In this document: positions 10,004-33,403 of the stretch, one piece after another | Layout: the number at the start of each line of letters is the position of its first letter | Numbering within the stretch: position 1 is the first letter of the stretch | Assembly (NCBI GenBank): GCA_036401615.1 | Contig: DASWUO010000059.1 | Coordinates: forward strand, 1 to 38,673 | DNA: 38,673 nucleotides | Reading direction: 5' to 3' | Source of the DNA: Bacilli bacterium | GTDB lineage: Bacteria > Bacillota > Bacilli > Paenibacillales > DASWUO01 | The notes under the pieces: model-generated | Databases searched by the model: none | What the model saw: only the letters and a program-made list of their open reading frames with translations | What the model was told of the DNA's origin: nothing | Program-made: the position numbers and the translations under genes

Positions 10004-11044
10004 TCAACTAATTTCAAGATGCTGGGTTTGCACCGCCTCTAACCATTGTTCATATTTCTTCAAAGCCATTCCCTGCTCCAACGCATATTTGGCATGATAT
10101 ATCCCTTCTTCAACGGAGTCTACTTTTTCCGCAATCCATAGACGAAGGGCGCTGTTCAACAGCACCATATTGTGGTAATACATCTCGCTTTCACCTCTAA
10201 GCACCTTAAGCGCCGTTTGCGCCTGAAGAGCCGCTGTCCATTCCACCTCGGGCATTTCCGCTTGCAGTTCGAAAATTTCCGGATCTACGATGTAGAGTTC
10301 ACTTGCACCATCCCGTACAATGTAGGTTCTGGTTCTTTTATCAAGCGCCAGATCCTCAGACCCTTCTACCCCTTGTAAAATAATACCCCGCTTAATCCCG
10401 AGCTGTATGATGAGTTTAGACATCTTTTCGAACACGGTTCCATGAAATACGCCAACTGCCATATAAGGCGCTTCCGATAACCGCAGCAGCTTCTCAACGG
10501 TGTTAAACACGGTTCTGACCCCCAACTCCTGTCGAATTCCCCGAAGACCGCCTAATGGCGGACACCAATGTTCGGTTGATATGAATAATACACCGCCTTT
10601 TTCAGCTCCGGCAAGATGTGCATTTCTGGAATCGGCACCTGTGGAAACTCCAATTTCGTGTAACAAATCCGTTAAAGTAATCCCCATTTTTGGAGGAAGC
10701 GGAGCACTGCCATGCAGCGTTACAGGTAAACCGCAGGATGCCAGGACAAAAGCAGTCGGAAAAGTAGCGATGAATGAACGCTTGCGCCCGTCATAAGGGC
10801 CGGCACAATCAAATCCACCCTTTATAGGATGTACAGTACTTGTATTGCGGCAAACGTCAACAAAAGCTTGAATTTCTTCCGTAGATTCCATCTTGATTCT
10901 CTCAGCAATCAGGAACGCCCCGATCTGCGCCGGAGTAGCTTTGCCTGTGATAATCATCCCAGCTCCCATAACTGCTTCTTCATAAGTCAGGTCACGGGCG
11001 CCCTTCTTACCCCTTCCAACTTCCTTTAATAAGGAAAACATCAT
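10004..11044 (-). CDS. TrpD2 (YbiB-like) protein: AnPRT fold without the catalytic motifs
   Basis: 346 aa. The N-terminus LKEVGRGKKGARDLTYEEA resembles E. coli YbiB. The AnPRT motifs GTGGD and KHGNR are replaced by AGPYDG and LHGS. The ATG overlaps the upstream ANTAR stop (ATGA). Confidence 0.75.
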   Translation of the reverse strand: MMFSLLKEVGRGKKGARDLTYEEAVMGAGMIITGKATPAQIGAFLIAERIKMESTEEIQAFVDVCRNTSTVHPIKGGFDCAGPYDGRKRSFIATFPTAFVLASCGLPVTLHGSAPLPPKMGITLTDLLHEIGVSTGADSRNAHLAGAEKGGVLFISTEHWCPPLGGLRGIRQELGVRTVFNTVEKLLRLSEAPYMAVGVFHGTVFEKMSKLIIQLGIKRGIILQGVEGSEDLALDKRTRTYIVRDGASELYIVDPEIFELQAEMPEVEWTAALQAQTALKVLRGESEMYYHNMVLLNSALRLWIAEKVDSVEEGIYHAKYALEQGMALKKYEQWLEAVQTQHLEIS

Positions 11045-11661
11045 TTCTTTCGTCCCCCTCTTGTTTCTTCTTGAAGAAGTTGAAATACTTTCACAATCGA
11101 GGATGCTACATCGGACATTCTTTTTCTTTCATTCATAGCTTGTTTGCGCAAAAACTCATAGGCTTCCGCCTCAGAAATCTTCTTCATATCACATAGTATT
11201 TTCTTGGCTTGATCGATCCACTTGCGTTCTTCCAGTTTGGACAACAGCAGCTCTCTTTCCAGCTGCCACTGTGTGCGTTCCATATAGTGCTTGGAGCTTA
11301 GATGCAGCACCCAATTGATTTCTGCATCGTTCATTCCCATGCATAACATACCGTCCAAATCCAACTCAAGACTGCATTCACTGCTGCCTGAAGTAGATTC
11401 ATCAAACCACCACAGAAGAGGCAGGTTGCGCCAAGCCAGTATTTTTGTTCCCCACTTGATTAAATCAGGAATGGCCATTTGAAGAATAACGGCATCTATT
11501 GCCCGAAGGTTTTGTTTAACTTCTATTTCCGTATGCGCGTATATCACGCGGTAACCCATAAGCGCCAGTTTATGGGCAGGGCTTTTATGATCGGCTATGT
11601 TATTGTTTACAGGATCTTTTATAATTAAAAAAGATTGCAGCAATACTAACACTCCTTTCAT
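11041..11661 (-). CDS. ANTAR-domain RNA-binding antiterminator with pseudo-receiver N-terminal domain (AmiR/NasT-like)
   Basis: The C-terminus WIDQAKKILCDMKKISEAEAYEFLRKQAMNERKRMSDVASSIV is ANTAR. In the receiver-like half, Gln sits at the phospho-acceptor position (VILQMAIP). AAAGGAG lies just inside the track ORF, so TTG 11643 may be the true start. Confidence 0.85.
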   Translation of the reverse strand: MKGVLVLLQSFLIIKDPVNNNIADHKSPAHKLALMGYRVIYAHTEIEVKQNLRAIDAVILQMAIPDLIKWGTKILAWRNLPLLWWFDESTSGSSECSLELDLDGMLCMGMNDAEINWVLHLSSKHYMERTQWQLERELLLSKLEERKWIDQAKKILCDMKKISEAEAYEFLRKQAMNERKRMSDVASSIVKVFQLLQEETRGGRKK

Positions 11662-11792
11662 CTGTAAAGATCAACAGTTGTTCCACAAATATAACACAAT
11701 CATGAAAACTAATGTAACACATAAAACCATTAAAATTACTAATTACAGTTAAAAAAATTTATTATTGCTTTTTTTCATCTGGCACAACAAAG

Positions 11793-11844
11793 CCCGCATG
11801 CAATCCGACGTGCGCTTCTCTCGCAGACGTCGCTTGCATGCGGG
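11793..11844 (-). terminator. Long hairpin terminator after tatC
   Basis: CCCGCATGCAA...TTGCATGCGGG forms an 11-bp outer stem with an inner GACGT/ACGTC stem. On the minus strand it is followed by CUUUGUUGU. Confidence 0.55.
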
Positions 11845-11856
11845 AATTTACAATGA

Positions 11857-12600
11857 CTAGGTGATCCAGCTTTGCTCCTCCGCAAGCTGTTTGCGATACA
11901 CAATCCGAGACAATATGACACTCAACTCAAACAGCAGTATGAGCGGGATCGTCACCAGTAAGTCGGAGATGATGTCCGGAGGTGTCACCATCGTAGCGAT
12001 GACGATAAGCAGCATGTAGGCATAACGCCGCATTTTTTGCAGCCGCATCGGGTTTAACACACGAATCCGTGTCAGAAACATGACCAAGACCGGCAGCTCA
12101 AACAAGAGTGACAGAGGTATTATAATATTGAACATAAACGAAAAATACTGGGTGATCCCATACGTTTCTGTCAATCCCAGCCCATGCGTCACAGCCAAGG
12201 TGAACTGGAACGCCATCGGGAAAACAACCCGATACCCAAAGGCCAATCCGCCAAAAAATAACAGAATCGCCCAAGGGATGTATTTGAGTGCCGCTTTGCG
12301 CTCCGGCATGCGCAAGCCTGGCTTGACGAATGACCACATCTGAATAAGCGCAATGGGCATCGCTGCTGACAACGCGATAACGAACGCGATCTGCATATAC
12401 ACGCGAATGGCATCCCAAGGTGAAAATACATTCCATGAGACGTCCTTTGCCAGAGCCGCTTCCTTCAGAAACTCAAGAATCCGCTCAGCCGCAAACAATC
12501 CGCCAATCATTGCCGCCACCAAAACCACCAAAACCCAAACGATGCGGCTTCGCAGCTCGCTTAGATGATCGACAAGGGACATCTCCCGGTCTTCCCGCAT
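11857..12600 (-). CDS. tatC: Sec-independent translocase subunit TatC
   Basis: Polytopic TatC pattern with an MREDREMSLVDHLSELRSR N-terminus. I set the start to ATG 12600, just after the tatA stop; the track start 12681 would overlap tatA. Confidence 0.85.
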   Translation of the reverse strand: MREDREMSLVDHLSELRSRIVWVLVVLVAAMIGGLFAAERILEFLKEAALAKDVSWNVFSPWDAIRVYMQIAFVIALSAAMPIALIQMWSFVKPGLRMPERKAALKYIPWAILLFFGGLAFGYRVVFPMAFQFTLAVTHGLGLTETYGITQYFSFMFNIIIPLSLLFELPVLVMFLTRIRVLNPMRLQKMRRYAYMLLIVIATMVTPPDIISDLLVTIPLILLFELSVILSRIVYRKQLAEEQSWIT

Positions 12601-12625
12601 GATTTCACCAGCCTGCCCACTTTCG

Positions 12626-12868
12626 TTATTCCGGCAATCGCTTGTTATCCTTAAATTGGCCGTTTTCAACATATTGAGCATCAGATCCGCCTACTTCTTT
12701 ACGTGAAGCTTGCTGATCATCATCCGACAGCGCTTCACGCGTGCCTTTCTTAAATTCACTAAGCGTACGGCCGATCGCCCGGCCGAGCTCCGGCAGCTTG
12801 CTCGGTCCGAACAAGATAATCCCAACGAGCGCTATCAAAATCAAACCTGTGGCGCCAATACCACCCAT
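12626..12868 (-). CDS. tatA: Sec-independent translocase subunit TatA
   Basis: One TM plus an amphipathic helix, with the motif GIILFGPSKLPELGRAIG. ATG 12868 lies 8 nt after AAGGAG; the track GTG at 12877 sits inside the SD. Confidence 0.85.
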   Translation of the reverse strand: MGGIGATGLILIALVGIILFGPSKLPELGRAIGRTLSEFKKGTREALSDDDQQASRKEVGGSDAQYVENGQFKDNKRLPE

Positions 12869-12986
12869 ACGAAACACTCCTTAGGGGATGCACAAAAGGG
12901 TGCTCCCGCATTATTTTTATTTTCTGTAAAGCGGATTTCCGCCTTACAGAGCGCAATTCAGCTTCAAATGGTGTTGTAAAAGCATT

Positions 12987-13823
12987 TCACCTCATTTCAA
13001 CGGTCGGTCTGCCGTGAAGATATTCCAGCAATTCATCTTTCAGGTCGTTATAAACCGACTGGTGGATCACCTCGCGCCGCATACGGGGACGTTTGATCGG
13101 GACGGTGATGATCGTCTCTACTTTTGCCGCCGGACCGTTGGTCATCACCACGATACGATCAGATAAAAGAATCGCTTCGTCAATATCGTGGGTCACCATG
13201 ATGACAGTATCCGTACCACCCACCGGACCGCCATCGCCGTTTCCGTCTGCCGTGGGCTTCCACAGGCTGACAAGCTCATCTTGAAGTGTGGCTCGCGTGA
13301 GTGCATCTAGGGCGCCGAAGGGTTCATCGAGAAGGAGCACCTGGGGGCCAACCGCGAAAGCACGTGCAATGGCTGCGCGCTGCTTCATACCGCCTGAGAT
13401 TTCATCCGGCCGCTTATGTCTGTGCTTCCACAATCCGACCACGCTAAGATAATGCTCGACGATAGACTTCTTTTCGGCTTGTGAACGATTCGGGAAAACG
13501 GCGTCCACGACCTCATAGACATTTCCCCATACCGAGAGCCACGGCAAGAGAGAGTAATTCTGAAAGACAACGCCCCGGTCGGGGCCGGGACCGGTAACAG
13601 GCTCCCCGTCGAGGAACACTTTACCGGTCGTTGGCTTCTCCAGTCCGGCAACGATATTGAGAATCGTCGATTTGCCGCACCCGGAGTGTCCGATCAAGGA
13701 GACAAACTCGCCTCTTTCGATGTGCAAGTTAATATTTTGGAGGACTTGGAAATCGCCCTTCTTGGTTGGATACACCTTGCTGATGTTCTCAAGTTTCAGG
13801 TAGGACAATCCGTCACCCCCCAT
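12987..13823 (-). CDS. ABC transporter ATP-binding protein, nitrate/sulfonate/bicarbonate (NrtD/SsuB) type
   Basis: Walker A GHSGCGKST, signature SGGMKQR, Walker B LLLDEPF. It overlaps the permease gene end. Confidence 0.85.
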   Translation of the reverse strand: MGGDGLSYLKLENISKVYPTKKGDFQVLQNINLHIERGEFVSLIGHSGCGKSTILNIVAGLEKPTTGKVFLDGEPVTGPGPDRGVVFQNYSLLPWLSVWGNVYEVVDAVFPNRSQAEKKSIVEHYLSVVGLWKHRHKRPDEISGGMKQRAAIARAFAVGPQVLLLDEPFGALDALTRATLQDELVSLWKPTADGNGDGGPVGGTDTVIMVTHDIDEAILLSDRIVVMTNGPAAKVETIITVPIKRPRMRREVIHQSVYNDLKDELLEYLHGRPTVEMR

Positions 13824-14667
13824 AATGGAATCTTTTTTCGATATAATGAAAGCCCCTGTCCAAAACGAGACCGACTAAGCCGATGAGCACGATAGCAGAG
13901 ATGACCCGTTCCAAGCTGAGTGCGTTCCAGCTATCCCAGACGAAGAATCCGATACCGGTTCCGCCTGAAAGCATTTCTGCGGCAACGATCACCATCCAGG
14001 CGATTCCAAGGCTCAGCCGCAGGCCTGTAAGAATATAGGGCAACGAGTAGGGGAAAAGCACCTTCGTCAGATACTTCCATTTCGAAAAGCGGAAGACCGC
14101 AGCCACATTTCGGTGGTCCTTAGGAATCGACGAGACACCAAAGGCTGTGTTCACGACTGTCGGCCAGAGCGACGTAATGAAGATAATAAAGATCGTGGCC
14201 GGGCCGACCAAATGAAATACTGCCAGCCCAATAGGAAACCAGGCTAACGGGGACACTGGCCTCAGCACTTGGACAATCGGGTCGAAGAGCTGCCTGCAGA
14301 ACGGTGTCACACCCATGGCAATCCCAAGCGGCACCGCGATCAGCGCGCCCAATAGAAATCCGGCGAACACCCGCCCTAGCGAGGCTAATAGCTGCAGCCC
14401 AATTCCTTTATCGTTAGGGCCGTAGTTATAAAACGGGTTGGAGACAAGATCCCAGAAAATAGGCAGCGTACTCACGGGACCAGGAAGGGCTTTACCCGAG
14501 AGTTGGCTCGTTACTTCCCACAACAGGACGAGGAGCGTCATGCTCCCGATCAGGTAACCGGCCTTGCGCAGGCCGTTCATCAGGCCGTTCATCCAGTGGG
14601 AAGGCAGAGTGAGGCGTCTCACTGATAATACACTATGCGTGACACTCTGTTCTATTTGCTTACTCAT
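13813..14667 (-). CDS. ABC transporter permease, NrtB/SsuC type
   Basis: 284 aa polytopic binding-protein-dependent inner-membrane component, sitting between the SBP and ATPase genes. Confidence 0.85.
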   Translation of the reverse strand: MSKQIEQSVTHSVLSVRRLTLPSHWMNGLMNGLRKAGYLIGSMTLLVLLWEVTSQLSGKALPGPVSTLPIFWDLVSNPFYNYGPNDKGIGLQLLASLGRVFAGFLLGALIAVPLGIAMGVTPFCRQLFDPIVQVLRPVSPLAWFPIGLAVFHLVGPATIFIIFITSLWPTVVNTAFGVSSIPKDHRNVAAVFRFSKWKYLTKVLFPYSLPYILTGLRLSLGIAWMVIVAAEMLSGGTGIGFFVWDSWNALSLERVISAIVLIGLVGLVLDRGFHYIEKRFHYGG

Positions 14668-14672
14668 CTAGA

Positions 14673-15950
14673 TCAACCTCCGTATTGTTTTAACGATCCA
14701 GCCGGATCGCTCGGGTCAAACGTAGCGCCGTCCAGTTTGAGCTGGAAGGACTTCATGTCGTCATCGGGAATGGAGATCCCCATTTCGCCCGCGACCTCAC
14801 GGTACAGGTCCTTCATAATCAGCTTGTCGGCAATCTGCTCGTACTCCGGGTGTTTATCCAGATATCCGAAGCGGACGTACTGGCTCATAAAGAACATGGC
14901 ATGGGATTTGCGCGGTAAGTTCACGCTTCCGCCCTTGTGAAAGAGCATATAATCGTCAGTGTAGATGTGTTCGCCCAGATCGGCGCCCAAATCATATTTA
15001 CCCAGCAGGCGGTTCTCGATCGTTTCGGCCGGGGCGTTGACGTAGGCCTGGTGGCCGATCACCTTGGCGGCCTCTTTGCGGTTATCTAATTTATCGAGCC
15101 ACTGCGACGCTTCGAGGACGGCCTTCATGACGGCCTTCACCTCGTCGGTGCGGGCGCTCCAAACCTTGTTGAGGACAAGAGCCTTCTCGGTGTGGTCCTT
15201 CCAGATGTCCTGTGTGGAAATGTGGGTAAATCCTATTTTCTGCGCTACAGCTACTCCGCCCCAGGGCTCACCCACACAGTATCCGTCCATGTTGCCCACC
15301 TTCATATTGGCTACCATTTGTGGCGGCGGGATCGTGATGATCTTCAGCTTCTTCTGATCGACTCCGACCGCCCCCAACCAGTAGCGCAGCCACAGGTCGT
15401 GCGTTCCCCCGGGGAAGGTCATGGCAAAAGTCGTCTCGCGCTTTGCCATCATCTCTTCAATGGCGGTTTTGGCCGCCTTCAGGTCTCGAAAGCCGGCATT
15501 GCGGAACTCGTTGGAAAGAGTAATTGCCTGCCCGTTCGTATTGAGCACCATGGCGATCGGTAACTCACTGCCAGCCATGCCGCCAACCCCAGTGTAGACG
15601 GAGAACGGCATGCCGAAGAGGCAGTGAGAAGCATTCAGGTCGCCGGAGAGCAATTTGTCGCGTACCGCGGCCCACGAAGCTTCCTTGGTGACGTCCACGT
15701 CCACGCCGTACTTCTCAAAGAGGCCGAGTTCTTTGGCCATGACGACCGAAGCGCAGTCCGTCAACGGAATAAAGCCAATCTTGATCTTCCCTCCCTTCTT
15801 CGGGGTCGGGATCGGGCTGTTTGAGGCAACCGGAGTCTTCTCAGTATTCTTGACTCCGCATGCGGAAAGCAGGGCGCCGGGCAGCATCAATGCGGCACCC
15901 GCCACACCCGTCTTTTTCAAGAACTCTCGTCTTGTTATTTTATCTCTCAT
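14673..15950 (-). CDS. Tat-exported lipoprotein substrate-binding protein, NrtA/CmpA-like (nitrate/nitrite inferred from context)
   Basis: Twin-arginine motif TRREFLKK followed by lipobox LLSAC. The mature domain is of the NrtA/SsuA family type. GGGGAGGA lies 6 nt upstream of the ATG. Confidence 0.82.
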   Translation of the reverse strand: MRDKITRREFLKKTGVAGAALMLPGALLSACGVKNTEKTPVASNSPIPTPKKGGKIKIGFIPLTDCASVVMAKELGLFEKYGVDVDVTKEASWAAVRDKLLSGDLNASHCLFGMPFSVYTGVGGMAGSELPIAMVLNTNGQAITLSNEFRNAGFRDLKAAKTAIEEMMAKRETTFAMTFPGGTHDLWLRYWLGAVGVDQKKLKIITIPPPQMVANMKVGNMDGYCVGEPWGGVAVAQKIGFTHISTQDIWKDHTEKALVLNKVWSARTDEVKAVMKAVLEASQWLDKLDNRKEAAKVIGHQAYVNAPAETIENRLLGKYDLGADLGEHIYTDDYMLFHKGGSVNLPRKSHAMFFMSQYVRFGYLDKHPEYEQIADKLIMKDLYREVAGEMGISIPDDDMKSFQLKLDGATFDPSDPAGSLKQYGG

Positions 15951-16054
15951 AGGATTTCCTCCCCTATCATCGCAGCCGCAAGAGGAGCCATGATCGTCAA
16001 CTGCAATACTTTGATTTCTTCATTTATGAACTTAGAAAAATCAGCCACCTTCAT
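15947..16054 (-). CDS. Candidate 35-codon upstream small ORF coupled to the SBP gene
   Basis: AGGAGGGG, then 5 nt, then ATG 16054. Translation MKVADFSKFINEEIKVLQLTIMAPLAAAMIGEEIL. Its TGA overlaps the SBP ATG (ATGA at 15947-15950). Below the ORF-track size cutoff. Confidence 0.3.
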   Translation of the reverse strand: MKVADFSKFINEEIKVLQLTIMAPLAAAMIGEEIL

Positions 16055-16234
16055 ACTTACCCCTCCTGTAAATTATTTAGCCTCTCGGCATTCGTTGAGC
16101 CAATACGGGACGAAGAATTCCTTGTACTGCTAAAATCATGTTGCGCAATTTCACAACTTCCGCTGCATTTTAATGTAAGCGCGCTTTCTGTATCCCCTCC
16201 TTATCCCGAGTGTAACTAGGCATTTTCATGTTAA

Positions 16235-16286
16235 TAAAGATAACACAAAAGGCCTATCCCTCTACATCGCTGTAGGGAGGATAGGC
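16235..16286 (-). terminator. Leader intrinsic terminator of the nrt-tat operon
   Basis: Minus-strand RNA GCCUAUCCUCCCUACA-gcga-UGUAGAGGGAUAGGC (about 15 bp with one bulge) followed by CUUUUGUGUUAUCUUUAUU. It lies about 285 nt upstream of the SBP start. Confidence 0.7.
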
Positions 16287-16325
16287 TTCATTGCCCTTAA
16301 GGAGTGACACATCATTGTGCTCCTT
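16283..16325 (-). promoter_or_regulatory. ANTAR-type dual hexaloop element (nrt leader)
   Basis: P1 is AAGGAGCAC[AAUGAU]GUG(uca)CUCCUU. P2 is GGGC[AAUGAA]GCCU. Both loops have A at position 1 and G at position 4. The P2 3' arm is the first 4 nt of the terminator 5' arm. Confidence 0.7.
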
Positions 16326-16337
16326 GTTGATATTGTT

Positions 16338-16366
16338 ATTATAAATGGCATTTTCGCATATGTCAA
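16338..16366 (-). promoter_or_regulatory. Sigma-A promoter of the nrt-tat operon
   Basis: On the minus strand: TTGACA (16366-16361), a 17-nt spacer, then TATAAT (16343-16338). Both hexamers match consensus. Confidence 0.7.
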
Positions 16367-16377
16367 TAAACATAACA
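16361..16377 (-). promoter_or_regulatory. TnrA/GlnR-type box overlapping the -35 of the nrt promoter
   Basis: The minus strand reads TGTTATGTTTATTGACA, which equals TGTNA-N7-TNACA exactly. Confidence 0.5.
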
Positions 16378-16433
16378 TTAAAATTTAAAATTCATTAATT
16401 ATGCGACCTTACTCGTCTTTTTTTCTCTTTATA

Positions 16434-16450
16434 TGTCATGTTTTCTTACA
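16434..16450. promoter_or_regulatory. TnrA/GlnR-type box
   Basis: TGTCATGTTTTCTTACA matches TGTNA-N7-TNACA. It sits inside the longer palindrome TATATGTCA...TTACATATA. Confidence 0.5.
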
Positions 16451-16541
16451 TATAAAGACTTCTGATCACCATTGGCGATAAAAAGTTACGCATCTTCTTC
16501 AGTTTTTGTATTTTACTCCAATGTCATCGATCAAAAGATTG

Positions 16542-16558
16542 TGTCAATATTAATAACA
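16542..16558. promoter_or_regulatory. TnrA/GlnR-type box
   Basis: TGTCAATATTAATAACA matches TGTNA-N7-TNACA. Confidence 0.5.
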
Positions 16559-16583
16559 TGAAGAAGATATACGAGAATTTTTA

Positions 16584-16600
16584 CGTTATGTTTATTGACA
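16584..16600 (+). promoter_or_regulatory. TnrA/GlnR-type box (one mismatch) overlapping the -35 of the nas promoter
   Basis: CGTTATGTTTATTGACA. 16 of its 17 nt are identical to the box at 16361-16377 read on the other strand. Confidence 0.45.
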
Positions 16601-16624
16601 TGACATAGTGAATCGTCTTATAAT
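16595..16624 (+). promoter_or_regulatory. Sigma-A promoter of the nasA-nasD-nasE-nasC operon
   Basis: TTGACA (16595-16600), an 18-nt spacer, then TATAAT (16619-16624). Confidence 0.7.
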
Positions 16625-16666
16625 CAAGTTATCACAATAAAGGTGACTGCATATTGATTAATGAAT

Positions 16667-16703
16667 TTAAACACAACGTTGTGTTTAATTGGCAATGAGG
16701 CCA
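16667..16703 (+). promoter_or_regulatory. ANTAR-type dual hexaloop element (nas leader)
   Basis: P1 is UUAAACAC[AACGUU]GUGUUUAA (8 bp). P2 is UGGC[AAUGAG]GCCA. Both loops are A1/G4. The P2 3' arm GCCA lies within the terminator 5' arm AGGCCAU. Confidence 0.7.
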
Positions 16704-16754
16704 TTTCGGGATCCATAAGGATCTTCAGATGGCCTTTTTATGTGTTTTATTTTT
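16698..16754 (+). terminator. Leader intrinsic terminator of the nas operon
   Basis: AGGCCAUUUCGGGAUCC-auaa-GGAUCUUCAGAUGGCCU pairs 17 positions with one C-C mismatch and three G-U wobbles. It is followed by UUUUAUGUGUUUUAUUUUU. Confidence 0.75.
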
Positions 16755-16788
16755 AAAAAATAGAAAAAATTTCAAGGGAGAATCTACT

Positions 16789-18027
16789 ATGGAAGAAAAA
16801 AGTTTTTTAAAAAGCGGCCACAAGCCATCATTGTTCAGTTCTTTTCTTTATTTCGACATCAGTTTTATGGTTTGGGTGCTAATGGGTCCACTGGCAGTTG
16901 TGATTATGAGCGATTTTCAAATGGATGCAGCGCAAAAAGCTAATTTAGTTGCTCTTCCAATTTTAGGCGGTTCCATTCTTCGATTGGTGCTTGGTTGGAT
17001 GACGGATTATATCGGTCCCAAAAAGACTGGACAAATTGGTTTAATTGTTACCATGATCCCTTTAGTAATGGCTTGGCAATTTGTGGAGACTTTAAGCGGA
17101 TTGTATATCACTGCATTATTGCTGGGTGTTGCCGGAGCGAGTTTCGCGGCTGCCTTGCCGCTGGCAAGCCGTTGGTATCCGCCGCAGCATCAGGGTTTGG
17201 CGATGGGCATAGCCGGAGCGGGAAACAGCGGCACGATTATTACTACGCTGTTCGCTAATCGAATTGCCCAGCATTATGGGGATTGGCATATAGTCTTTGG
17301 ATTCGCCCTGATTCCTGTGGTTCTGACCTTTATAGCTTTTACCTTATTGGCTAAGGATAGCCCGGATCAGCCTGCACCCAAGAAGTTTGCCGACTATGCC
17401 GTCGTTCTAAAACAAAAGGATACTTGGTTATTCTGTATGCTCTATAGTGTCACCTTCGGCGGATTTGTGGGGATGGCAAGTTATTTAACGATATTTTTTA
17501 ATACTCAATATGGCTTGGCTCCAATTGCTGCTGCAAATTTTACAACAATCTGCGTCATTGCGGGCAGTTTCTTCCGCCCGGTAGGCGGGTGGCTTTCCGA
17601 TAAAGTTGGCGGCATTCGGATGTTGACAATTCTTTATCTAGGCATTGCCCTGATGCTTGCCGGAGTTTCCACTTTGCCTGCGCTTGGACTTACTACTGCG
17701 ATGCTTTTTGTCGGGATGATGTGTATGGGGATGGGGAATGGCGCAGTATTCCAACTAGTACCGCAGCGGTTTAAGCAGGAAATTGGGATTATGACAGGAA
17801 TTGTTGGAGCGGCTGGAGGCCTTGGGGGATATTTCTTGCCTAAGATATTAGGAAACTTAAAGCTGTCCTCCGGTTCTTTCACTCCTGGGTTTCTGGTACT
17901 TAGTGTCATTGCCGTCAGCTGCATTGGGATCCTCCTTATTGCGCAAGGCCAATGGAAGAAAACCTGGATCGGCCAAGGCGGAAAAGCCAAGAAAGATGTG
18001 GTTGGGGCGCAAGTACAAGCCAGTTAG
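16789..18027 (+). CDS. nasA: MFS nitrate/nitrite transporter (NarK/NasA type)
   Basis: 12-TM MFS with NarK-like Gly-rich motifs (GGSILRLVLGWMTDYIGPKK, GIAGAGNSG). I moved the start to ATG 16789 (AAGGGAG 8 nt upstream) because the track ATG 16729 lies inside the terminator stem. Confidence 0.9.
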   Translation: MEEKSFLKSGHKPSLFSSFLYFDISFMVWVLMGPLAVVIMSDFQMDAAQKANLVALPILGGSILRLVLGWMTDYIGPKKTGQIGLIVTMIPLVMAWQFVETLSGLYITALLLGVAGASFAAALPLASRWYPPQHQGLAMGIAGAGNSGTIITTLFANRIAQHYGDWHIVFGFALIPVVLTFIAFTLLAKDSPDQPAPKKFADYAVVLKQKDTWLFCMLYSVTFGGFVGMASYLTIFFNTQYGLAPIAAANFTTICVIAGSFFRPVGGWLSDKVGGIRMLTILYLGIALMLAGVSTLPALGLTTAMLFVGMMCMGMGNGAVFQLVPQRFKQEIGIMTGIVGAAGGLGGYFLPKILGNLKLSSGSFTPGFLVLSVIAVSCIGILLIAQGQWKKTWIGQGGKAKKDVVGAQVQAS

Positions 18028-18052
18028 TAAATTAAAAGGAGCTGAAATCACC

Positions 18053-20473
18053 ATGGTACAGATGAAGAAGTTAGTTCTCATAGGAAACGGAATGGCAGGG
18101 GTCAACACAGTTGAACATATCTTGAAATTAGCGCCGAATAAATTTGATATTACGATTTTCGGTACTGAACCTCACCCCAATTACAACCGCATCCTGCTTT
18201 CCTACGTGCTTTCAGGCGATTCCAGTGTTAATGATATTGTTATCAACAGCTATGAATGGTATGAATCCAATGGAATTACCCTCTATACGGACCACACTGT
18301 AACTGAAATTAACACTGAGCAACAAACCGTTACCAGCAATCAAGGAGTTTGTGTTGCTTATGATCAACTTATTATCGCAACCGGGTCCAATCCCTTTATG
18401 CTTCCCCTGCCTGGTGCAGATAAAGAAGGCGTCATGGCTTACCGTACAATACAGGATTGCGAGAAGATGATTGAAGCCTCTAAAACATTAAAAAAAGCCA
18501 TTGTTATCGGCGGCGGTTTACTTGGTCTGGAAGCGGCAAGAGGCTTTCTGAATTTAGGCATGAAAGTCGATGTCGTGCATATTTGCGGCTCTATTATGGA
18601 ACGCCAACTGGATCCAACAGCCTCCAGCATGTTGCGTGAAGCTTTAGAGGCACAAGGAATGAACTTTTTGCTGGAAAAACAATCTGCAGAAATCATCGGA
18701 AACGAGCATGTCACCGGGCTTAAATTTAAAGACGGCACTAAAGCCGACGGCGATTTAATCGTTATGGCTGTTGGGATCAGACCAAATGTAGAGTTGGCTA
18801 AAAGAGCCGGTATTGAAGTCAATCCTGGAATTGTTGTCGATGACTATCTTCGAACCAATATTCCCAATGTATACGCAGTAGGTGAATGCGCCCAGCACCG
18901 CGGGATCGCATACGGCTTGGTAGCCCCTCTGTATGAGCAAGGTGCGGTTCTCGCTAAACATATTACTGAAGTAGAAACGGCACCGTATGAAGGATCCATT
19001 CTCTATACCAAACTTAAAGTATCCGGTGTAGATGTTTTCTCGGGCGGTCAATTTATGGAAAGCCCCGGAACCAAAGCCATTCGCATCCATGACGAATTTG
19101 CCGGAATTTATAAAAAAGTGCTGATCAAGGAAAATAAAATCATCGGGGCTGTTTTATTCGGAGACACTTCCGATGGAACCAGACTGATGCAGATGATTCG
19201 TAATCAAACGGATATCAGCGGCTATGATAAAACAGCCCTTCTTATTGAAACAGGAGGCAACACCAACGACTCCTCGAACGTTGCGGAAATGACGGATGAT
19301 AGCATTATTTGCGGCTGCAACGGCGTAAGCAAAGGTACCATTTGTTCAGCGATCAAAACCCAAGGTTTATCTACTGTAGAAGAAGTAAAGAATTGCACTA
19401 CAGCTTCACGCTCGTGCGGGGGCTGCAAGCCGCTCGTCAGTGATTTATTAGCTTATACACTTGGTGATCAATATGATAAAACGGCAGTGAAAGAATCAAT
19501 GTGTGGATGCACCACATTGTCCCGTGATGAAATTCTTGAGCAAATCCGTGAAAAAGAATTATTACACATTCGCGAAGTCATGAACGTACTTGAATGGAAG
19601 ACCGCGGAAGGCTGTTCCAAATGCAGACCTGCCCTTAATTACTACCTTGCCATGATCAATCCGACAGAATATGTGGATGACAGCACTTCCCGTTTTGTCA
19701 ACGAACGGATGCACGCTAATATTCAAAAAGATGGCACCTACTCTGTTATCCCGCGCATTTATGGCGGAGTGACCAACCCTGCCGAGCTTAAACGCATTGC
19801 TGAGGTGGCCGAGAAATTTAACATCCCTACAGTAAAATTTACAGGAGGCCAGCGTCTTGATCTGCTGGGTGTGAAGAAAGAAGATTTGACCCAAGTTTGG
19901 GAAGCACTTGATATGCCTTCCGGTTATGCTTATGGCAAAGCTTTACGAACGGTCAAAACATGTGTAGGCCAGGATTATTGCCGCTTTGGCACCGCAGATT
20001 CCATGGGTATGGGAATACGGATGGAAAAACGCTTTGAACGTTTAAACACACCCGCTAAAGTGAAGATGGCCGTATCCGGTTGTCCGCGAAATTGTGCAGA
20101 GTCCGGAATTAAGGATTTAGGAGTTGTTGCCATTGATGGCGGCTGGGAGCTCTATGCCGGCGGTAATGGAGGAGTAAAGATACGTGCAGGCGATCTCCTT
20201 GCAACTGTAAAAACGGAAGACGAGGTCATCGAATATACCGAGGCTTATTTACAATATTATCGAGAGACTGCCATTTATTTAGAAAGAACCTCAGATTGGG
20301 TAAAACGTGTTGGCATTCAACCTATCCGGGATGTTATCCTGGATGCTGAAAAACGGATTGGACTTTGTGATAGAATGAATACTGTCTTATCTGTAACAAC
20401 GGATCCTTGGAAAGAGGCAATTGATAACGAAAAAATTCAAAAAGACTTATACGAGGTTATTGAAATAAAATAG
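18053..20473 (+). CDS. nasD: Assimilatory NAD(P)H nitrite reductase large subunit
   Basis: FAD/NAD fold (KLVLIGNGMAG), two BFD-like 2Fe-2S modules (CGCNGVSKG..CGGC and CGCTTLSRD..CSKC), and siroheme/4Fe-4S cysteines (CVGQDYCRFG, SGCPRNCAES). Start set to ATG 18053 after the nasA stop, behind AAAGGAG. Confidence 0.93.
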   Translation: MVQMKKLVLIGNGMAGVNTVEHILKLAPNKFDITIFGTEPHPNYNRILLSYVLSGDSSVNDIVINSYEWYESNGITLYTDHTVTEINTEQQTVTSNQGVCVAYDQLIIATGSNPFMLPLPGADKEGVMAYRTIQDCEKMIEASKTLKKAIVIGGGLLGLEAARGFLNLGMKVDVVHICGSIMERQLDPTASSMLREALEAQGMNFLLEKQSAEIIGNEHVTGLKFKDGTKADGDLIVMAVGIRPNVELAKRAGIEVNPGIVVDDYLRTNIPNVYAVGECAQHRGIAYGLVAPLYEQGAVLAKHITEVETAPYEGSILYTKLKVSGVDVFSGGQFMESPGTKAIRIHDEFAGIYKKVLIKENKIIGAVLFGDTSDGTRLMQMIRNQTDISGYDKTALLIETGGNTNDSSNVAEMTDDSIICGCNGVSKGTICSAIKTQGLSTVEEVKNCTTASRSCGGCKPLVSDLLAYTLGDQYDKTAVKESMCGCTTLSRDEILEQIREKELLHIREVMNVLEWKTAEGCSKCRPALNYYLAMINPTEYVDDSTSRFVNERMHANIQKDGTYSVIPRIYGGVTNPAELKRIAEVAEKFNIPTVKFTGGQRLDLLGVKKEDLTQVWEALDMPSGYAYGKALRTVKTCVGQDYCRFGTADSMGMGIRMEKRFERLNTPAKVKMAVSGCPRNCAESGIKDLGVVAIDGGWELYAGGNGGVKIRAGDLLATVKTEDEVIEYTEAYLQYYRETAIYLERTSDWVKRVGIQPIRDVILDAEKRIGLCDRMNTVLSVTTDPWKEAIDNEKIQKDLYEVIEIK

Positions 20474-20516
20474 GTTGACTCGAGAACATATAAGGTAACG
20501 AAGGGAATGATCAGCC

Positions 20517-20861
20517 ATGAGTTTACAGACAGCGACTGCAATATGGGTAGAAGTTGCCTCCTACGATGAACTTCCTGTGAACACAGGTAAGACCGTGCGT
20601 TATCAGGGGCAAGAGGTGGCGTTATTCAAACTAAGCAACGGCAATCTCAAGGCGATTGAAAATCGATGTCCCCATAAGAATGGCGTCCTTGCTGAGGGGA
20701 TCGTATGCGATGACCATGTATTCTGCCCCATGCATGACCGCAAAATCCAACTTTCGACAGGGCTGGTACAAGCGCCTGATACGGGATGTGTAAAAACTTA
20801 TAATGTGACTGTAAAAGAGGGTAAAGTGTATATTGAATTTACAAAGGCGACTTTTTCATAA
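20517..20861 (+). CDS. nasE: Nitrite reductase small subunit (Rieske-like)
   Basis: 114 aa with CPHKNG...CPMHD Rieske-type ligands, immediately downstream of nasD. Confidence 0.9.
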   Translation: MSLQTATAIWVEVASYDELPVNTGKTVRYQGQEVALFKLSNGNLKAIENRCPHKNGVLAEGIVCDDHVFCPMHDRKIQLSTGLVQAPDTGCVKTYNVTVKEGKVYIEFTKATFS

Positions 20862-20876
20862 CTGGGGTGATTTGAA

Positions 20877-23048
20877 ATGACTACTATAAATTCGACAGCG
20901 TCCTTATCCCAAACTTTACTTCCAGCCTTATCTTCTATTAAAACATCCCATTGTTGTTTTTGCAGCATGCAGTGCGAAATACAATTAGAGCCGAGCGATA
21001 AGGAACCCGGGCTAGTTGTTAAACCAAGCCCGGATTTCCCTGTTGCTACAGGGCGGCTCTGTCAAAAAGGATTTAATGTTCTGGATCATGTGCTGCATCC
21101 TTCTCGAATAACCGTCCCCCTAAAGAGGAGAAATACTGAAACTGGAAGTGTTCCCAATGAGTTCGCTGAAAAATATAACCCTGCCGTGTGGCAGCAAAAC
21201 GATTGGAATACAACACTAACAGAAATTGCCTCGAAAATAAAAGCAATTCAAGCTGATCATGGGCATAATTCAGTTGCTGTATACGGCGGCGGTTCCGTAA
21301 CCAATGAAGTTTGTTATTTGCTCGGCAAATTTACAAGAGTTGCCCTCCGATCCAAATATATAGATTATAACGGGCGATTTTGTATGTCTTCTGCTGCTGC
21401 AGCCGCGAATAAGGCATTTGGCGCCGATCGCGGTATGACAATGCCATTATCGGAAATACCAAAAGCCAAGTATATCCTGCTGGCTGGAACTAATATTGCC
21501 GAATGCCAACCTACCCTAATGCCTTACCTAATGGAAGCTAAGAAAAGCGGGGCAACCATCGTTACGATAGATCCCCGCCATACGATGACCTCCAAACTTG
21601 CCGATATTCACGTCCGCCTTCAACCCGGCTTTGACTCTGTCTTTGTTAACGGCTTACTCCATGTGATCATATCGGAGAAGTTGTATAACTCACCTTATGT
21701 TGAATTGCACACAAATGGATTAACCCAACTGATGGAAGCTGTAAAATCTTTCACACCGGCTCGGGTTGAGGCCCTTACTGGTGTACTAGAAGCCGTTATC
21801 CGGACTATCGCCCGCGGTTTCGCAAATGCTGAAACAGGAATGGTTCTAACTGCCCGCGGCCTTGAGCAGCAAGTGAATGGTGTAGAAAACACACTAAATT
21901 ATATCAATCTGAGCTTGCTTACGGGCAAGATGGGTAAGCCCGGCTGCGGTTTTGGCTCCATTACGGGTCAAGCCAATGGCCAAGGAGGGCGGGAGCACGG
22001 GCAGAAGGCCGACCAACTCCCGGGTTACAGGCTTATAGAGGACCCGGCCGCTCGGGAGCACGTGGCTAAAGTCTGGGGTATCCACCCTGATGAACTCCCC
22101 GGGAAAGGTGTCTCTGCCTATGAAATGATTCAAAAAATAGATCAAGGTGAAATAAAGGCGATGATTGTCCTCGGATCCAATCCCGTCGTTTCCTGTCCAA
22201 ACAGTCATTTTGTTGAGCAAGCTTTAAAAAAGTTAGAGCTGTTGGTTGTGGTTGACTTATTCGAAACCGAAACTGCCGCCTATGCCCACTGGCTTCTTCC
22301 CGGCTCCTCCTTTCTTGAAGGCGAAGGCACACTGACGAATCTCGAAGGACGTGTATTTCATCGGCCTCAAGCGCTGGACTTACCCGGCGAAACCAAGCTT
22401 GATTATAAATTGATTTGTGAATTGGCTGAATACTTGGGTCGGGGGGATTTCTTCCAGTATAACTCCATTGAAGATGTATTTAATGAACTTACGGCTGCTA
22501 CTGCCGGAGGCATTGCAGATTACAGCGGCATCACTTATCAGCGATTAATAGAAGAAAAGGGCGTATTCTGGCCCTGTCCTTCTGAAAACCACCCGGGTAC
22601 CCCTACCATGTTCATTCATGGTTTTTACCACCCCGATGGGAAAGCAAAGCTATTTGGTATAGAGCCCCAGATGCCCGCTGAACCGATTGACCGGGAATAT
22701 CCTTATATTCTTACTACTGGTCGGGTGGCTAATCATTATCTAAGCGGAGTCCAAACACGGCGTTCCCCGGGGTTAAATAAGAAAGCTCCGGTCCCTGTTG
22801 CCGAAATCCACCCATGGTTAGCCAAGAAGATTGGCCTCGGCATAGAAAGCAAGATTCGCATCACCAGCCGGCGCGGCTCTCTTATTGTTCAAGCAAAGAT
22901 TTCAGAATCCATCCAACCCCAAACCGTATTTGTCCCCTTTCACTGGGGAGGGGAATTGTCGATTAACCGCCTCACCAATGATGCCCTTGATCCCACCAGC
23001 CGGATGCCGGAATTTAAGATTTGTGCCGTACAGATCGAGTCCACTTAA
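20877..23048 (+). CDS. nasC: Assimilatory nitrate reductase catalytic subunit (molybdopterin oxidoreductase)
   Basis: N-terminal 4Fe-4S motif HCCFCSMQC...RLCQKG, a MopB core and a C-terminal molybdopterin dinucleotide-binding barrel. No signal or Tat motif, so it is cytoplasmic. Confidence 0.9.
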   Translation: MTTINSTASLSQTLLPALSSIKTSHCCFCSMQCEIQLEPSDKEPGLVVKPSPDFPVATGRLCQKGFNVLDHVLHPSRITVPLKRRNTETGSVPNEFAEKYNPAVWQQNDWNTTLTEIASKIKAIQADHGHNSVAVYGGGSVTNEVCYLLGKFTRVALRSKYIDYNGRFCMSSAAAAANKAFGADRGMTMPLSEIPKAKYILLAGTNIAECQPTLMPYLMEAKKSGATIVTIDPRHTMTSKLADIHVRLQPGFDSVFVNGLLHVIISEKLYNSPYVELHTNGLTQLMEAVKSFTPARVEALTGVLEAVIRTIARGFANAETGMVLTARGLEQQVNGVENTLNYINLSLLTGKMGKPGCGFGSITGQANGQGGREHGQKADQLPGYRLIEDPAAREHVAKVWGIHPDELPGKGVSAYEMIQKIDQGEIKAMIVLGSNPVVSCPNSHFVEQALKKLELLVVVDLFETETAAYAHWLLPGSSFLEGEGTLTNLEGRVFHRPQALDLPGETKLDYKLICELAEYLGRGDFFQYNSIEDVFNELTAATAGGIADYSGITYQRLIEEKGVFWPCPSENHPGTPTMFIHGFYHPDGKAKLFGIEPQMPAEPIDREYPYILTTGRVANHYLSGVQTRRSPGLNKKAPVPVAEIHPWLAKKIGLGIESKIRITSRRGSLIVQAKISESIQPQTVFVPFHWGGELSINRLTNDALDPTSRMPEFKICAVQIEST

Positions 23049-31489: not shown

Positions 31490-33403
31490 ATGTTCAATAA
31501 AACAAACATCTACCGTCATCTTTCTTATGCCAGTTATACCCTCTTTTTAATTTTATATTTATGGAAAATCTATCTTTTTAACCAATACACGAATGTTATT
31601 TTTATTAACACCCCCTGGTACCAGGGAACGTATGTAATCAGCTTGGGCTGCTTGATATTACTTTCCTTCTGGGTGTTTCTTCTTTCGGGAACGTTCCGGT
31701 TTCTCTCCTTAATCGGCATTAATTTGGCCGTTAGCTTTGTGATCTTTGCGGATTTATTATATTTCCGTTATTTCAAGGATTTTATCACCATTCCTGTAAT
31801 TTTACAGTCCGGACAAGTCAGTTCACTTGGGGACAGTGTTACTAACTTAATTGAAAACACGGATATATACTTTGTGGCAGATTTTGTTTTCTGGCTTCCA
31901 ATAGGAATTTTTTTATTAATCAGGTTAGGAATGAACAAACTATCTTCCTCTAATGTTCCTTCAAGAGCCAGCAGATTAAGAACAACCGCAGTGGTCTTCT
32001 GTATCGGTCTTCTTCTCACCGCCTACCCGCTGCACGTAGCTTCAACCACTTGGGCCAAGGAATTACTGCAAAGAAATTGGTGGAACATGTCAGTTTACAA
32101 TGCTACAGGGCTATTGGGTTTTCACGGTTATGATGCTTATAAATATACGGGAGAGCATTTGGTAAATAAGAATATTTCCGATGAGGATGCCGAAGAAGCT
32201 AAGATGTGGTTTGAGGAACATAGGGCAAAGCAGGTAAAGGACTTGACCTTGTTTGGGGCCGCCCAAGGGAGCAATGTCATTGTTGTACAGGCAGAGGCCT
32301 TCCAGAACTTTGCCATCGGCCGGAAGATCAATGGCGAAGAAATTACCCCTAATTTAAATGTTTTACTTAAGGAATCGATGTATTTTAATCACTTTTATCA
32401 CCAGACAGGACAAGGCCGAACCTCGGATGCCGATTTTCTAACCCATTGCTCATTGCACCCGCTGCCTACCGGTTCTGTTTTTATACGTTATCCGGATAAC
32501 ACCTATGATTGTCTCCCGCAAACCTTGAAGGACAATGGTTATCAAACCGCTGCTTTTCATGCTTATGAACCAAGCTTCTGGAATCGTTATCATGTCTATC
32601 CCAACATCGGAATAGACCGTTTCTACAGTGTCAAAGATTACAGTATTAATGAAATTATCGGTTGGTCGCTAAGCGATGAATCTTTCTTTAAACAATCCAT
32701 TGATAAAATGAACACTTTGCAGACGCCCTATTATTCTTACCTGATTACCTTGTCCAGTCATCATCCTTATAGTATTCAAGAGTATTATAAAAAATTAAAC
32801 GTGGGCAGCCTTAAAGACAAAATGCTCGGAAACTATATCCAATCTCTTCATTATGTTGACAAAGCTTTAGGAAATTTAGTAGAAAGATTAAAGGCTGACG
32901 GTCTCTGGGATACTTCCATTTTCGTATTTTACGGGGATCATGACAATGCGATTGTGGATTATAAGGGCATGGACTATTTTTACGGCAAAGAACAATCTTC
33001 ACTGGAGCGGGAGCAAGCCCGTAATCAAGTGCCGCTAATCATTCACCTGCCCCATGGTCAGGGTGCCGGCTTGTACGAGCAAGCAGCGGGGCAAATGGAT
33101 CTATCTCCTGCAATTATGCATTTATTAGGGATTCCGGCAAAAGACAAATACATCATGGGCAGCAATTTATTGCAAAATGACGGGCACAACGTGGTACTTC
33201 GTAACGGCAGCTTTACAGACAGCACGGTGTATTATATCGCTTCCCTAGACCATGTATTTGAACACGGGGAGTGTTACGACTTGAGCGATCAACAGAAAAC
33301 GAACCTGAATGCTTGCAGAAACCAATTTAATAGCGCTAACAAAGAGTTGGAGATTTCGGATCGGGTGATCCTATATAATTTAATCAAAGAGTGGAAGCCC
33401 TAA
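31490..33403 (+). CDS. ltaS: LTA synthase family protein (polyglycerolphosphate transferase, sulfatase fold)
   Basis: Five N-terminal TM helices plus an extracellular sulfatase-like domain with GQGRTSDADF (LtaS catalytic Thr block). Start set to ATG 31490 behind GGAAGGA; the track start is 31475. Confidence 0.85.
   Translation: MFNKTNIYRHLSYASYTLFLILYLWKIYLFNQYTNVIFINTPWYQGTYVISLGCLILLSFWVFLLSGTFRFLSLIGINLAVSFVIFADLLYFRYFKDFITIPVILQSGQVSSLGDSVTNLIENTDIYFVADFVFWLPIGIFLLIRLGMNKLSSSNVPSRASRLRTTAVVFCIGLLLTAYPLHVASTTWAKELLQRNWWNMSVYNATGLLGFHGYDAYKYTGEHLVNKNISDEDAEEAKMWFEEHRAKQVKDLTLFGAAQGSNVIVVQAEAFQNFAIGRKINGEEITPNLNVLLKESMYFNHFYHQTGQGRTSDADFLTHCSLHPLPTGSVFIRYPDNTYDCLPQTLKDNGYQTAAFHAYEPSFWNRYHVYPNIGIDRFYSVKDYSINEIIGWSLSDESFFKQSIDKMNTLQTPYYSYLITLSSHHPYSIQEYYKKLNVGSLKDKMLGNYIQSLHYVDKALGNLVERLKADGLWDTSIFVFYGDHDNAIVDYKGMDYFYGKEQSSLEREQARNQVPLIIHLPHGQGAGLYEQAAGQMDLSPAIMHLLGIPAKDKYIMGSNLLQNDGHNVVLRNGSFTDSTVYYIASLDHVFEHGECYDLSDQQKTNLNACRNQFNSANKELEISDRVILYNLIKEWKP

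Follow-up and report, generated by a model that had tools for sequence, protein, structure and literature searches.

Description

How can a single intergenic spacer set the expression of two divergent nitrate operons, and through which regulator? The question is raised by a 38,673-bp stretch of DNA (contig DASWUO010000059.1; hereafter the window), which is an entire contig of a metagenome-assembled genome recorded as 'Bacilli bacterium'. In it, an 838-bp spacer of 65% A+T separates two divergent nitrate-uptake and assimilation operons, narK-nirB-nirD-nasC on the plus strand and nrtABC-tatAC on the minus strand. A preliminary description, made from the letters alone, had read part of this spacer (16338-16624) as a mirror-image control region with twin consensus promoters and four boxes of the form TGTNAN7TNACA, the motif of the nitrogen regulators GlnR and TnrA. 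Here, we describe the promoters, boxes and leaders of the spacer and compare them with those of related genomes. On alignment evidence the region is one promoter/operator/attenuator module used twice, in inverted orientation, the second copy driving nrtABC-tatAC. GlnR probably represses both promoters by occlusion, with ANTAR-dependent antitermination layered on top.

The methionyl-tRNA synthetase encoded in the window shares 72-75% identity with those of many Paenibacillus spp. and its NarK shares ~80% identity with Paenibacillus NarK; the host is therefore assigned, by protein identity, to a Paenibacillaceae-like lineage. The comparison set comprised 80 narK loci from reference genomes, 52 of them Paenibacillaceae-type. 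The locus with the closest NarK (L001, 95% identity) was left out of the box comparison, its contig having only 119 bp upstream.

Promoters and boxes

A promoter scan of positions 15900-16850 returned two promoter-like sites only, each a 12/12 match to consensus, so the perfect TTGACA and TATAAT hexamers with 17- and 18-nt spacers described earlier stand. Transcription starts are predicted at 16631 (plus strand) and 16331 (minus strand), and the two composite promoters lie 229 bp apart. The 17-mer GTTATGTTTATTGACAT, previously described as an inverted duplication shared by the two -35 regions, is indeed found exactly twice (16585-16601 on the plus strand and 16360-16376 on the minus strand; 0 expected), but the repeat is longer than described and spans 26 nt with 24/26 matches (16360-16385 / 16576-16601).

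Five TGTNAN7TNACA boxes, numbered 0 to 4 (Table 1), lie in the spacer: four exact (starting at 16229, 16361, 16434 and 16542) and one with a single mismatch (16584). Boxes 1 to 4 are those first described, three of them exact and all at the coordinates given then; the exact box 0 (16229-16245) had been missed. The palindrome around box 2 was likewise recognised, but its arms are 11 nt (16426-16436 / 16448-16458) and not 9 nt. The box cluster is far beyond chance. Across the whole window 6 exact boxes are observed versus 0.44 expected, and between 16200 and 16640 (441 bp, GC 0.32) there are 4 versus 0.02 expected, a count reached in 0 of 5000 dinucleotide shuffles. Flanking A and T (A-TGT...ACA-T), which mark GlnR rather than TnrA motifs (PMC3412718), are both present at boxes 1 and 2, both present at box 4 around a CGT start, and present on one side each at boxes 0 and 3. 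Boxes 1 and 4 each have a half-site that is the -35 element of a promoter. Box 3 was considered as a third promoter and rejected, with no -10 element at 16-19 nt on either strand.

A further 1-mismatch box (16334-16350) overlaps the minus-promoter -10 element, 27 bp from box 1; it carries little weight because ~0.5 such sites are expected by chance. Exact boxes at 18298-18314 (inside nirB) and 31594-31610 (in the N-terminal membrane segment of an LtaS-like sulfatase) both fall in coding sequence and are probably chance matches. A motif scan of the spacer for Fnr/Crp (N6 spacing), Rex, CodY and ResD sites found none. One 1-mismatch cre-like site, TGTCATCGATCAAA (16522-16535), lies between boxes 2 and 3 and could be chance.

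Leaders and attenuators

Both promoters are followed by leaders that fold into a hairpin and a strong terminator (z = -4.9 for narK and z = -3.4 for nrtA). The hexaloops of hairpins P1 and P2, four in all, have A at position 1 and G at position 4, as expected of ANTAR substrates (PMC3369931), and both leaders have the features of ANTAR attenuators. An Rfam scan of the whole window matched no family; Rfam includes neither ANTAR targets nor this leader. With an attenuator after each promoter and an ANTAR protein encoded in the locus, the earlier proposal that control at initiation is layered with ANTAR control at elongation is well founded.

Conservation in Paenibacillaceae

A promoter of the form TTGAC(A/G), 17/18 nt, TATAAT (at most 1 mismatch) lies 190-410 bp upstream of narK in 50/52 Paenibacillaceae-type loci, and their composite box is orthologous to box 4. 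When these loci are aligned on the promoter alone, the distal half-site is kept as T42, G49, T49, n, A48 out of 50, and both half-sites are retained in the orthologous promoters, for sites of the box 4 and of the box 1 type alike. The relatives thus share a conserved composite, in which the right half-site of a GlnR-type box doubles as the -35 TTGACA and is followed by the -10 and an ANTAR-type attenuator. The placement of a box over the -35, thought at first to be unusual, is the rule in Paenibacillaceae narK promoters. The exact 17-mer TGTTATGTTTATTGACA of box 1 recurs in six species (loci L007, L014, L016, L022, L023 and L047). Bacillaceae loci carry classical TnrA-like boxes farther upstream (for example TGTTAnATTTCCTAACA upstream of narK) without the composite.

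Exact boxes are also concentrated at this position. In the 639 kb of related loci scanned, 61/76 lie within 450 bp upstream of narK, a density of 2.7 per kb versus 0.024 per kb elsewhere (more than 100-fold). The preliminary description had allowed for the boxes being equally dense in AT-rich intergenic DNA of the genome; this is not so in the sequence covered, as other AT-rich DNA of the related loci holds 1 exact box in ~14 kb (~0.07 per kb).

These data bear on a reading in which the boxes are not GlnR/TnrA sites at all, being by-products of a duplicated promoter (TTGACA with an AT-rich UP-like flank) or targets of an unrelated palindrome-recognising regulator. Boxes 1 and 4 do sit in the 26-nt inverted duplication, TTGACA automatically satisfies the half-site TNACA, and the spacer is AT-rich. 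Against this, the distal TGTnA is kept at the exact N7 spacing in 42-49/50 promoter-anchored orthologs, boxes 0, 2 and 3 match exactly though not at promoters, four exact boxes are never reached in local-composition shuffles, and the motif is rare in other AT-rich DNA of the loci. The spacer yielded no alternative regulator motif, and the orthologous Paenibacillus polymyxa region is enriched for GlnR in vivo (PMC9948412). This reading is very improbable.

A sequence rule for Paenibacillaceae nitrate-assimilation promoters follows, in which a GlnR half-site is the -35 element, a consensus -10 comes next, and an ANTAR attenuator closes the unit. The rule is tied to the only experimental data at hand, those for P. 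polymyxa. It could serve in annotating regulons and in designing promoters gated by nitrogen and nitrate for Paenibacillus strains used as biofertilisers; what is understood of GlnR or ANTAR systems as such is unchanged by it.

Regulator and sign of control

By motif and conservation the boxes are GlnR/TnrA-family operators, as first proposed, because the left half-site is kept across the relatives, the density of boxes upstream of narK exceeds that elsewhere by more than 100-fold, and the P. polymyxa ortholog is an in vivo GlnR target. They are also linked to nitrogen metabolism, with narK-nirBD-nasC and nrtABC on either side. In P. polymyxa WLY78, GTGTTATGTATATTGACAT is listed as a GlnR site common to the divergent nasA and nasD1, and the region is enriched for GlnR by chromatin immunoprecipitation and quantitative PCR (ChIP-qPCR) (Wang et al., 2023; PMC9948412). 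Box 4 matches this site at 15/17 positions, and the identical 19-mer is found in locus L049, in composite geometry. P. polymyxa has glnR and lacks tnrA (PMC6191146; PMC9249791).

The favoured reading is that GlnR represses both promoters by occlusion; we hold it to be probable. It is preferred because an operator over the -35 is a repression geometry, known from Bacillus subtilis glnRA (PMC3412718), and because consensus promoters need no activator. Sites for TnrA activation would lie upstream of the -35 of a promoter that depends on activation, centred near -50; boxes 4 and 1 are centred at ~-39 and ~-38 on 12/12 promoters. In P. polymyxa, nasA expression is lower in the wild type than in a glnR-deleted mutant, in either nitrogen regime (PMC9948412), so the repression offered as a fallback in the preliminary description is a better account than TnrA-type activation.

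What the sequences show are the features themselves, their conservation and the homology to a GlnR site validated by ChIP. Which regulator the host uses, in which direction it acts, what nitrogen signal it answers to and what boxes 0, 2 and 3 do are inferred in the scheme that follows. GlnR, probably the sole GlnR/TnrA-family regulator of the lineage, would bind boxes 1 and 4 and occlude the -35 elements, silencing two sigma-A promoters that are strong in themselves. Binding would, on the analogy of Bacillus and P. polymyxa, be stabilised by glutamine-feedback-inhibited glutamine synthetase (FBI-GS) at nitrogen plenty. Boxes 2, 3 and 0 may be auxiliary operators that raise local occupancy, and box 0, speculatively, a roadblock just past the leader terminator. 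Once GlnR is released, transcripts would still end at the leader terminators; read-through would need the REC-ANTAR protein encoded in the locus, activated by nitrate or nitrite, to bind the hexaloop hairpins. The net logic would be an AND gate requiring low nitrogen status and the presence of nitrate.

Several points weigh against this scheme. The ChIP signal at P. polymyxa nasA, nasD1 and nasD2EF is significant under nitrogen limitation only, with no electrophoretic mobility shift assay for nasA, and deletion of glnR impairs growth on nitrate and nitrite, which fits poorly with simple repression at nitrogen excess (PMC9948412). An older comparative table has a TnrA-like gene in two Paenibacillus genomes. 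No glnR, glnA or tnrA lies within the 38.7-kb window. Box 4 has C at position 1 where the consensus has T, and boxes 0, 2 and 3 have no demonstrable orthologs among the related loci, box 0 being not conserved. A metagenome scan with NrtA, which sought close orthologs of the minus promoter, found as nearest nrtABC-tatC relative a locus (L082; 83-94% amino acid identity) with an ANTAR leader and neither a box nor a divergent narK; the other matches were distant nrtABC operons, none with boxes.

Some of these points instead suit a GlnR/TnrA-family activator using the same boxes at nitrogen limitation, in class-II-like fashion from the -35-overlapping site, with GlnR in the TnrA role. The limitation-only occupancy, the poorer growth of the mutant and the TnrA-like gene of the older table are consistent with it, as are the statement of the P. 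polymyxa authors that GlnR took over TnrA roles (PMC9948412) and the activation of nif by GlnR through an upstream site. That activating nif site, however, is 58 bp upstream of the -35 and not over it; TTGACA and TATAAT are near-universal in the relatives, so that, as with the 12/12 promoters here, no activator is needed; and nasA rises on glnR deletion. We regard activation as unlikely.

Box spacing and higher-order binding

The proposed occlusion by GlnR at boxes 1 and 4 leaves the other boxes to be accounted for, and their spacing raises a second possibility, voiced for four sites in the preliminary description, that GlnR at all five forms a looped higher-order complex, possibly bridged by glutamine synthetase, which silences both promoters together while a roadblock at box 0 reinforces the terminator. 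This would extend repression by occlusion rather than exclude it. Box spacings in the window and its relatives cluster at 41-42, 52-54, 62-64, 73, 82-84, 94-95 and 116 bp, near multiples of 10.5 bp, and a Rayleigh test on unique distances with a 10.5-bp period gives p ~0.002 with a mean phase offset of ~-0.3 bp, although the species are not independent of one another by descent and the test was run with several periods. In the window, 42 bp (4.0 turns) separate boxes 3 and 4 and 73 bp (6.95 turns) separate boxes 1 and 2, but boxes 2 and 3 (108 bp, 10.3 turns) and boxes 0 and 1 (132 bp, 12.6 turns) are out of phase. The spacing hints at cooperative binding of boxes on the same face of the helix. 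Looping has been put forward as a model for nif of P. riograndensis, and two GlnR tails are bound per FBI-GS pore (PMC9249791); at P. polymyxa nif, looping was dismissed on experimental grounds (Wang et al., 2018), and most relatives manage with only one or two boxes. We consider a looped complex doubtful, if worth keeping in view.

A more specific form, in which the five boxes are one helically phased GlnR array, bridged by FBI-GS, that loops ~360 bp and turns both promoters off as a unit while the roadblock at box 0 makes the ANTAR-controlled terminator nitrogen-dependent, is distinctly unlikely. If true, a transcription-factor operator would be coupled directly to a riboregulated terminator.

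Origin of the mirrored arrangement

The preliminary description saw the mirror image of the twin promoters, but did not recognise the minus module as a second use of the narK promoter and attenuator. The minus promoter and leader (~150 nt: box/-35, -10, P1, P2 and terminator) align from end to end with the promoter and first attenuator of narK in a Paenibacillus clade (z = 19-33); the module is therefore used a second time, in inverted orientation. The plus module aligns with the same clade over the promoter only, and with locus L003 over 126 nt. In most relatives the layout is different: a trpD-like gene and an antar gene are divergent from narK-nirBD-nasC, and the antar promoter has no box. 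Mirrored re-use would place a recently gained nitrate ABC transporter under the two-tier control that narK has.

Mirrored composite promoters are also found in L009, L010, L015, L018, L019 and L048, where the antar gene lies in the 700-800 bp that separate them. Upstream boxes of the polymyxa type were considered as mirrored promoters and rejected in most loci; these six loci alone have true mirrored composites. What is particular to the window is the mirrored re-use together with three extra boxes and a high box count; the control design itself is ordinary in kind.

Comparison with known systems

The closest known system is nasA/nasD1 of P. polymyxa WLY78, with narK/nasA orthologous to narK here, a nearly identical box (TGTTATGTATATTGACA where the window has CGTTATGTTTATTGACA), divergent nas genes sharing GlnR sites, and negative regulation by GlnR (PMC9948412). 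By homology with loci L042, L046 and L049, its box also lies over a TTGACA-17-TATAAT promoter; the -35 overlap and the attenuators are not described in that paper. The window differs in having the nrtABC-tatAC transporter operon as divergent partner in place of nasD1/nasBC, five boxes versus two, and two mirror composites each with an ANTAR attenuator.

The glnRA operators of B. subtilis (glnRAo1/o2) are the same 17-bp motif, with A...T flanks as at boxes 1 and 2, one of them over the -35; several operators cooperate there and feedback-inhibited glutamine synthetase aids repression. Their target genes are different, and they are adjacent, whereas the boxes of the window spread over ~360 bp. 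The nas genes of B. subtilis are TnrA-activated and not GlnR-repressed, unlike the control that we favour for the window. Bacillaceae nasA and nasB share genes, motif family and divergent arrangement with the window; their TnrA boxes reportedly lie upstream of the nas promoter, as activation sites centred near -50 (in work of Wray in 1998 and Yoshida in 2003). No ANTAR leader is recognised there, whereas here the boxes lie over consensus -35 elements and TnrA is probably absent.

General nitrogen control at initiation combined with nitrate/nitrite-specific ANTAR antitermination at a leader terminator is also the design of NtrBC with NasT/NasS (Paracoccus, Azotobacter) and of NtrC with NasR (Klebsiella) (PMC5424462; PMC3369931). 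Those systems use sigma-54/NtrC activation, whereas in the window a GlnR-type operator sits on a consensus promoter for sigma-A, probably for repression, and their ANTAR partner is NasS or a NIT domain, where the window has a TrpD-like protein.

Table 1. Coordinates of the control elements and genes in the window
Feature	Position	Strand	Details
sigma-A promoter of narK-nirB-nirD-nasC	16595-16624	+	TTGACA 16595-16600, 18-nt spacer, TATAAT 16619-16624; 12/12 match
sigma-A promoter of small-ORF-nrtABC-tatAC operon	16338-16366	-	TTGACA 16366-16361, 17-nt spacer, TATAAT 16343-16338; 12/12 match
Box 0	16229-16245		exact, TGTTAATAAAGATAACA; 2 nt past minus-leader U-tract; ~+87 to +103
Box 1	16361-16377		exact; minus strand TGTTATGTTTATTGACA; half-site is minus-promoter -35; centre ~-38 from predicted start 16331
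Box 2	16434-16450		exact, TGTCATGTTTTCTTACA; inside palindrome 16426-16458
Box 3	16542-16558		exact auxiliary box, TGTCAATATTAATAACA; TTGACA on minus strand
Box 4	16584-16600		CGTTATGTTTATTGACA, 1 mismatch; right half-site is narK-promoter -35; centre ~-39 from predicted start 16631
narK leader with ANTAR-type attenuator	16631-16739	+	P1 hairpin 16667-16688 (AACGUU hexaloop); P2 16691-16702 (AAUGAG)
narK leader terminator	16698-16735	+	stem, overlapped by P2; T-run 16735-16739
nrtA leader with ANTAR-type attenuator	16247-16331	-	P1 16325-16299 (AAUGAU hexaloop); P2 16295-16284 (AAUGAA)
nrtA leader terminator	16286-16251	-	overlapped by P2; U-tract 16250-16247
narK-nirB-nirD-nasC operon (regulated)	16789-23048	+	narK 16789-18027; nirB ends 20473; nirD 20517-20861; nasC 20877-23048
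nrtABC-tatAC operon (regulated)	11857-16054	-	first gene 35-aa ORF 16054-15947; nrtA-like 15950-14673
nrtABC-tatAC operon, later genes		-	nrtB 14667-13813; nrtC/D 13823-12987; tatA ~12877-12626; tatC 12681-11857
ANTAR regulator gene	11041-11661	-	206 aa; REC-like N-terminus and ANTAR domain, E = 3e-17
TrpD-like partner gene	10004-11044	-	overlaps ANTAR gene (stop/start)
Promoter region of ANTAR/TrpD-like pair	11662-11800		AT-rich, separate from nrtABC-tatAC operon

Other features of the locus

The ANTAR protein has as its best PDB match the REC-ANTAR response regulator 6wsh, and its residues 1-140 have no Pfam match. Its gene is always followed by a TrpD/YbiB-like glycosyltransferase-family-3 gene, with overlapping stop and start, and the pair lies beside nas genes; it is present in 13 relatives (L002, L003, L005, L007, L008, L011, L014, L016, L017, L020, L023, L047 and L055). 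We know of no description of such a pairing. By analogy with AmiC for AmiR or NasS for NasT, the TrpD-like protein may be the partner that senses the signal. The Paenibacillus narK leaders of L007, L014, L016, L017, L020, L022, L023, L047 and L055 have a tandem pair of ANTAR attenuators, in a stretch from about -330 to -60 relative to narK. The window has one attenuator per operon, and its minus leader matches attenuator 1 of the tandem leaders.

The NrtA-like nitrate-binding protein bears a twin-arginine (TAT) signal, and its own operon includes tatA and tatC. The linkage of nrtABC with tatC is also seen in L082; the nrtABC-tatAC cassette is present in 0/80 of the narK loci. The 35-aa open reading frame (ORF) upstream of nrtA (15947-16054, minus strand) has an AGGAGG ribosome-binding site, and its stop codon and the start codon of nrtA overlap (ATGA). 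A small ORF occupies a similar place in L082 and shares an APLA motif with that of the window; the product may function as a leader peptide or as a small membrane subunit. A terminator-like hairpin lies 3' of the nrtABC-tatAC operon. A 15-nt inverted repeat of 93% identity (16385-16399 / 16657-16671; TTAAAATTCATTAAT / ATTAATGAATTTAAA) joins the DNA just upstream of the minus promoter to the narK leader, and may be an AT-rich coincidence.

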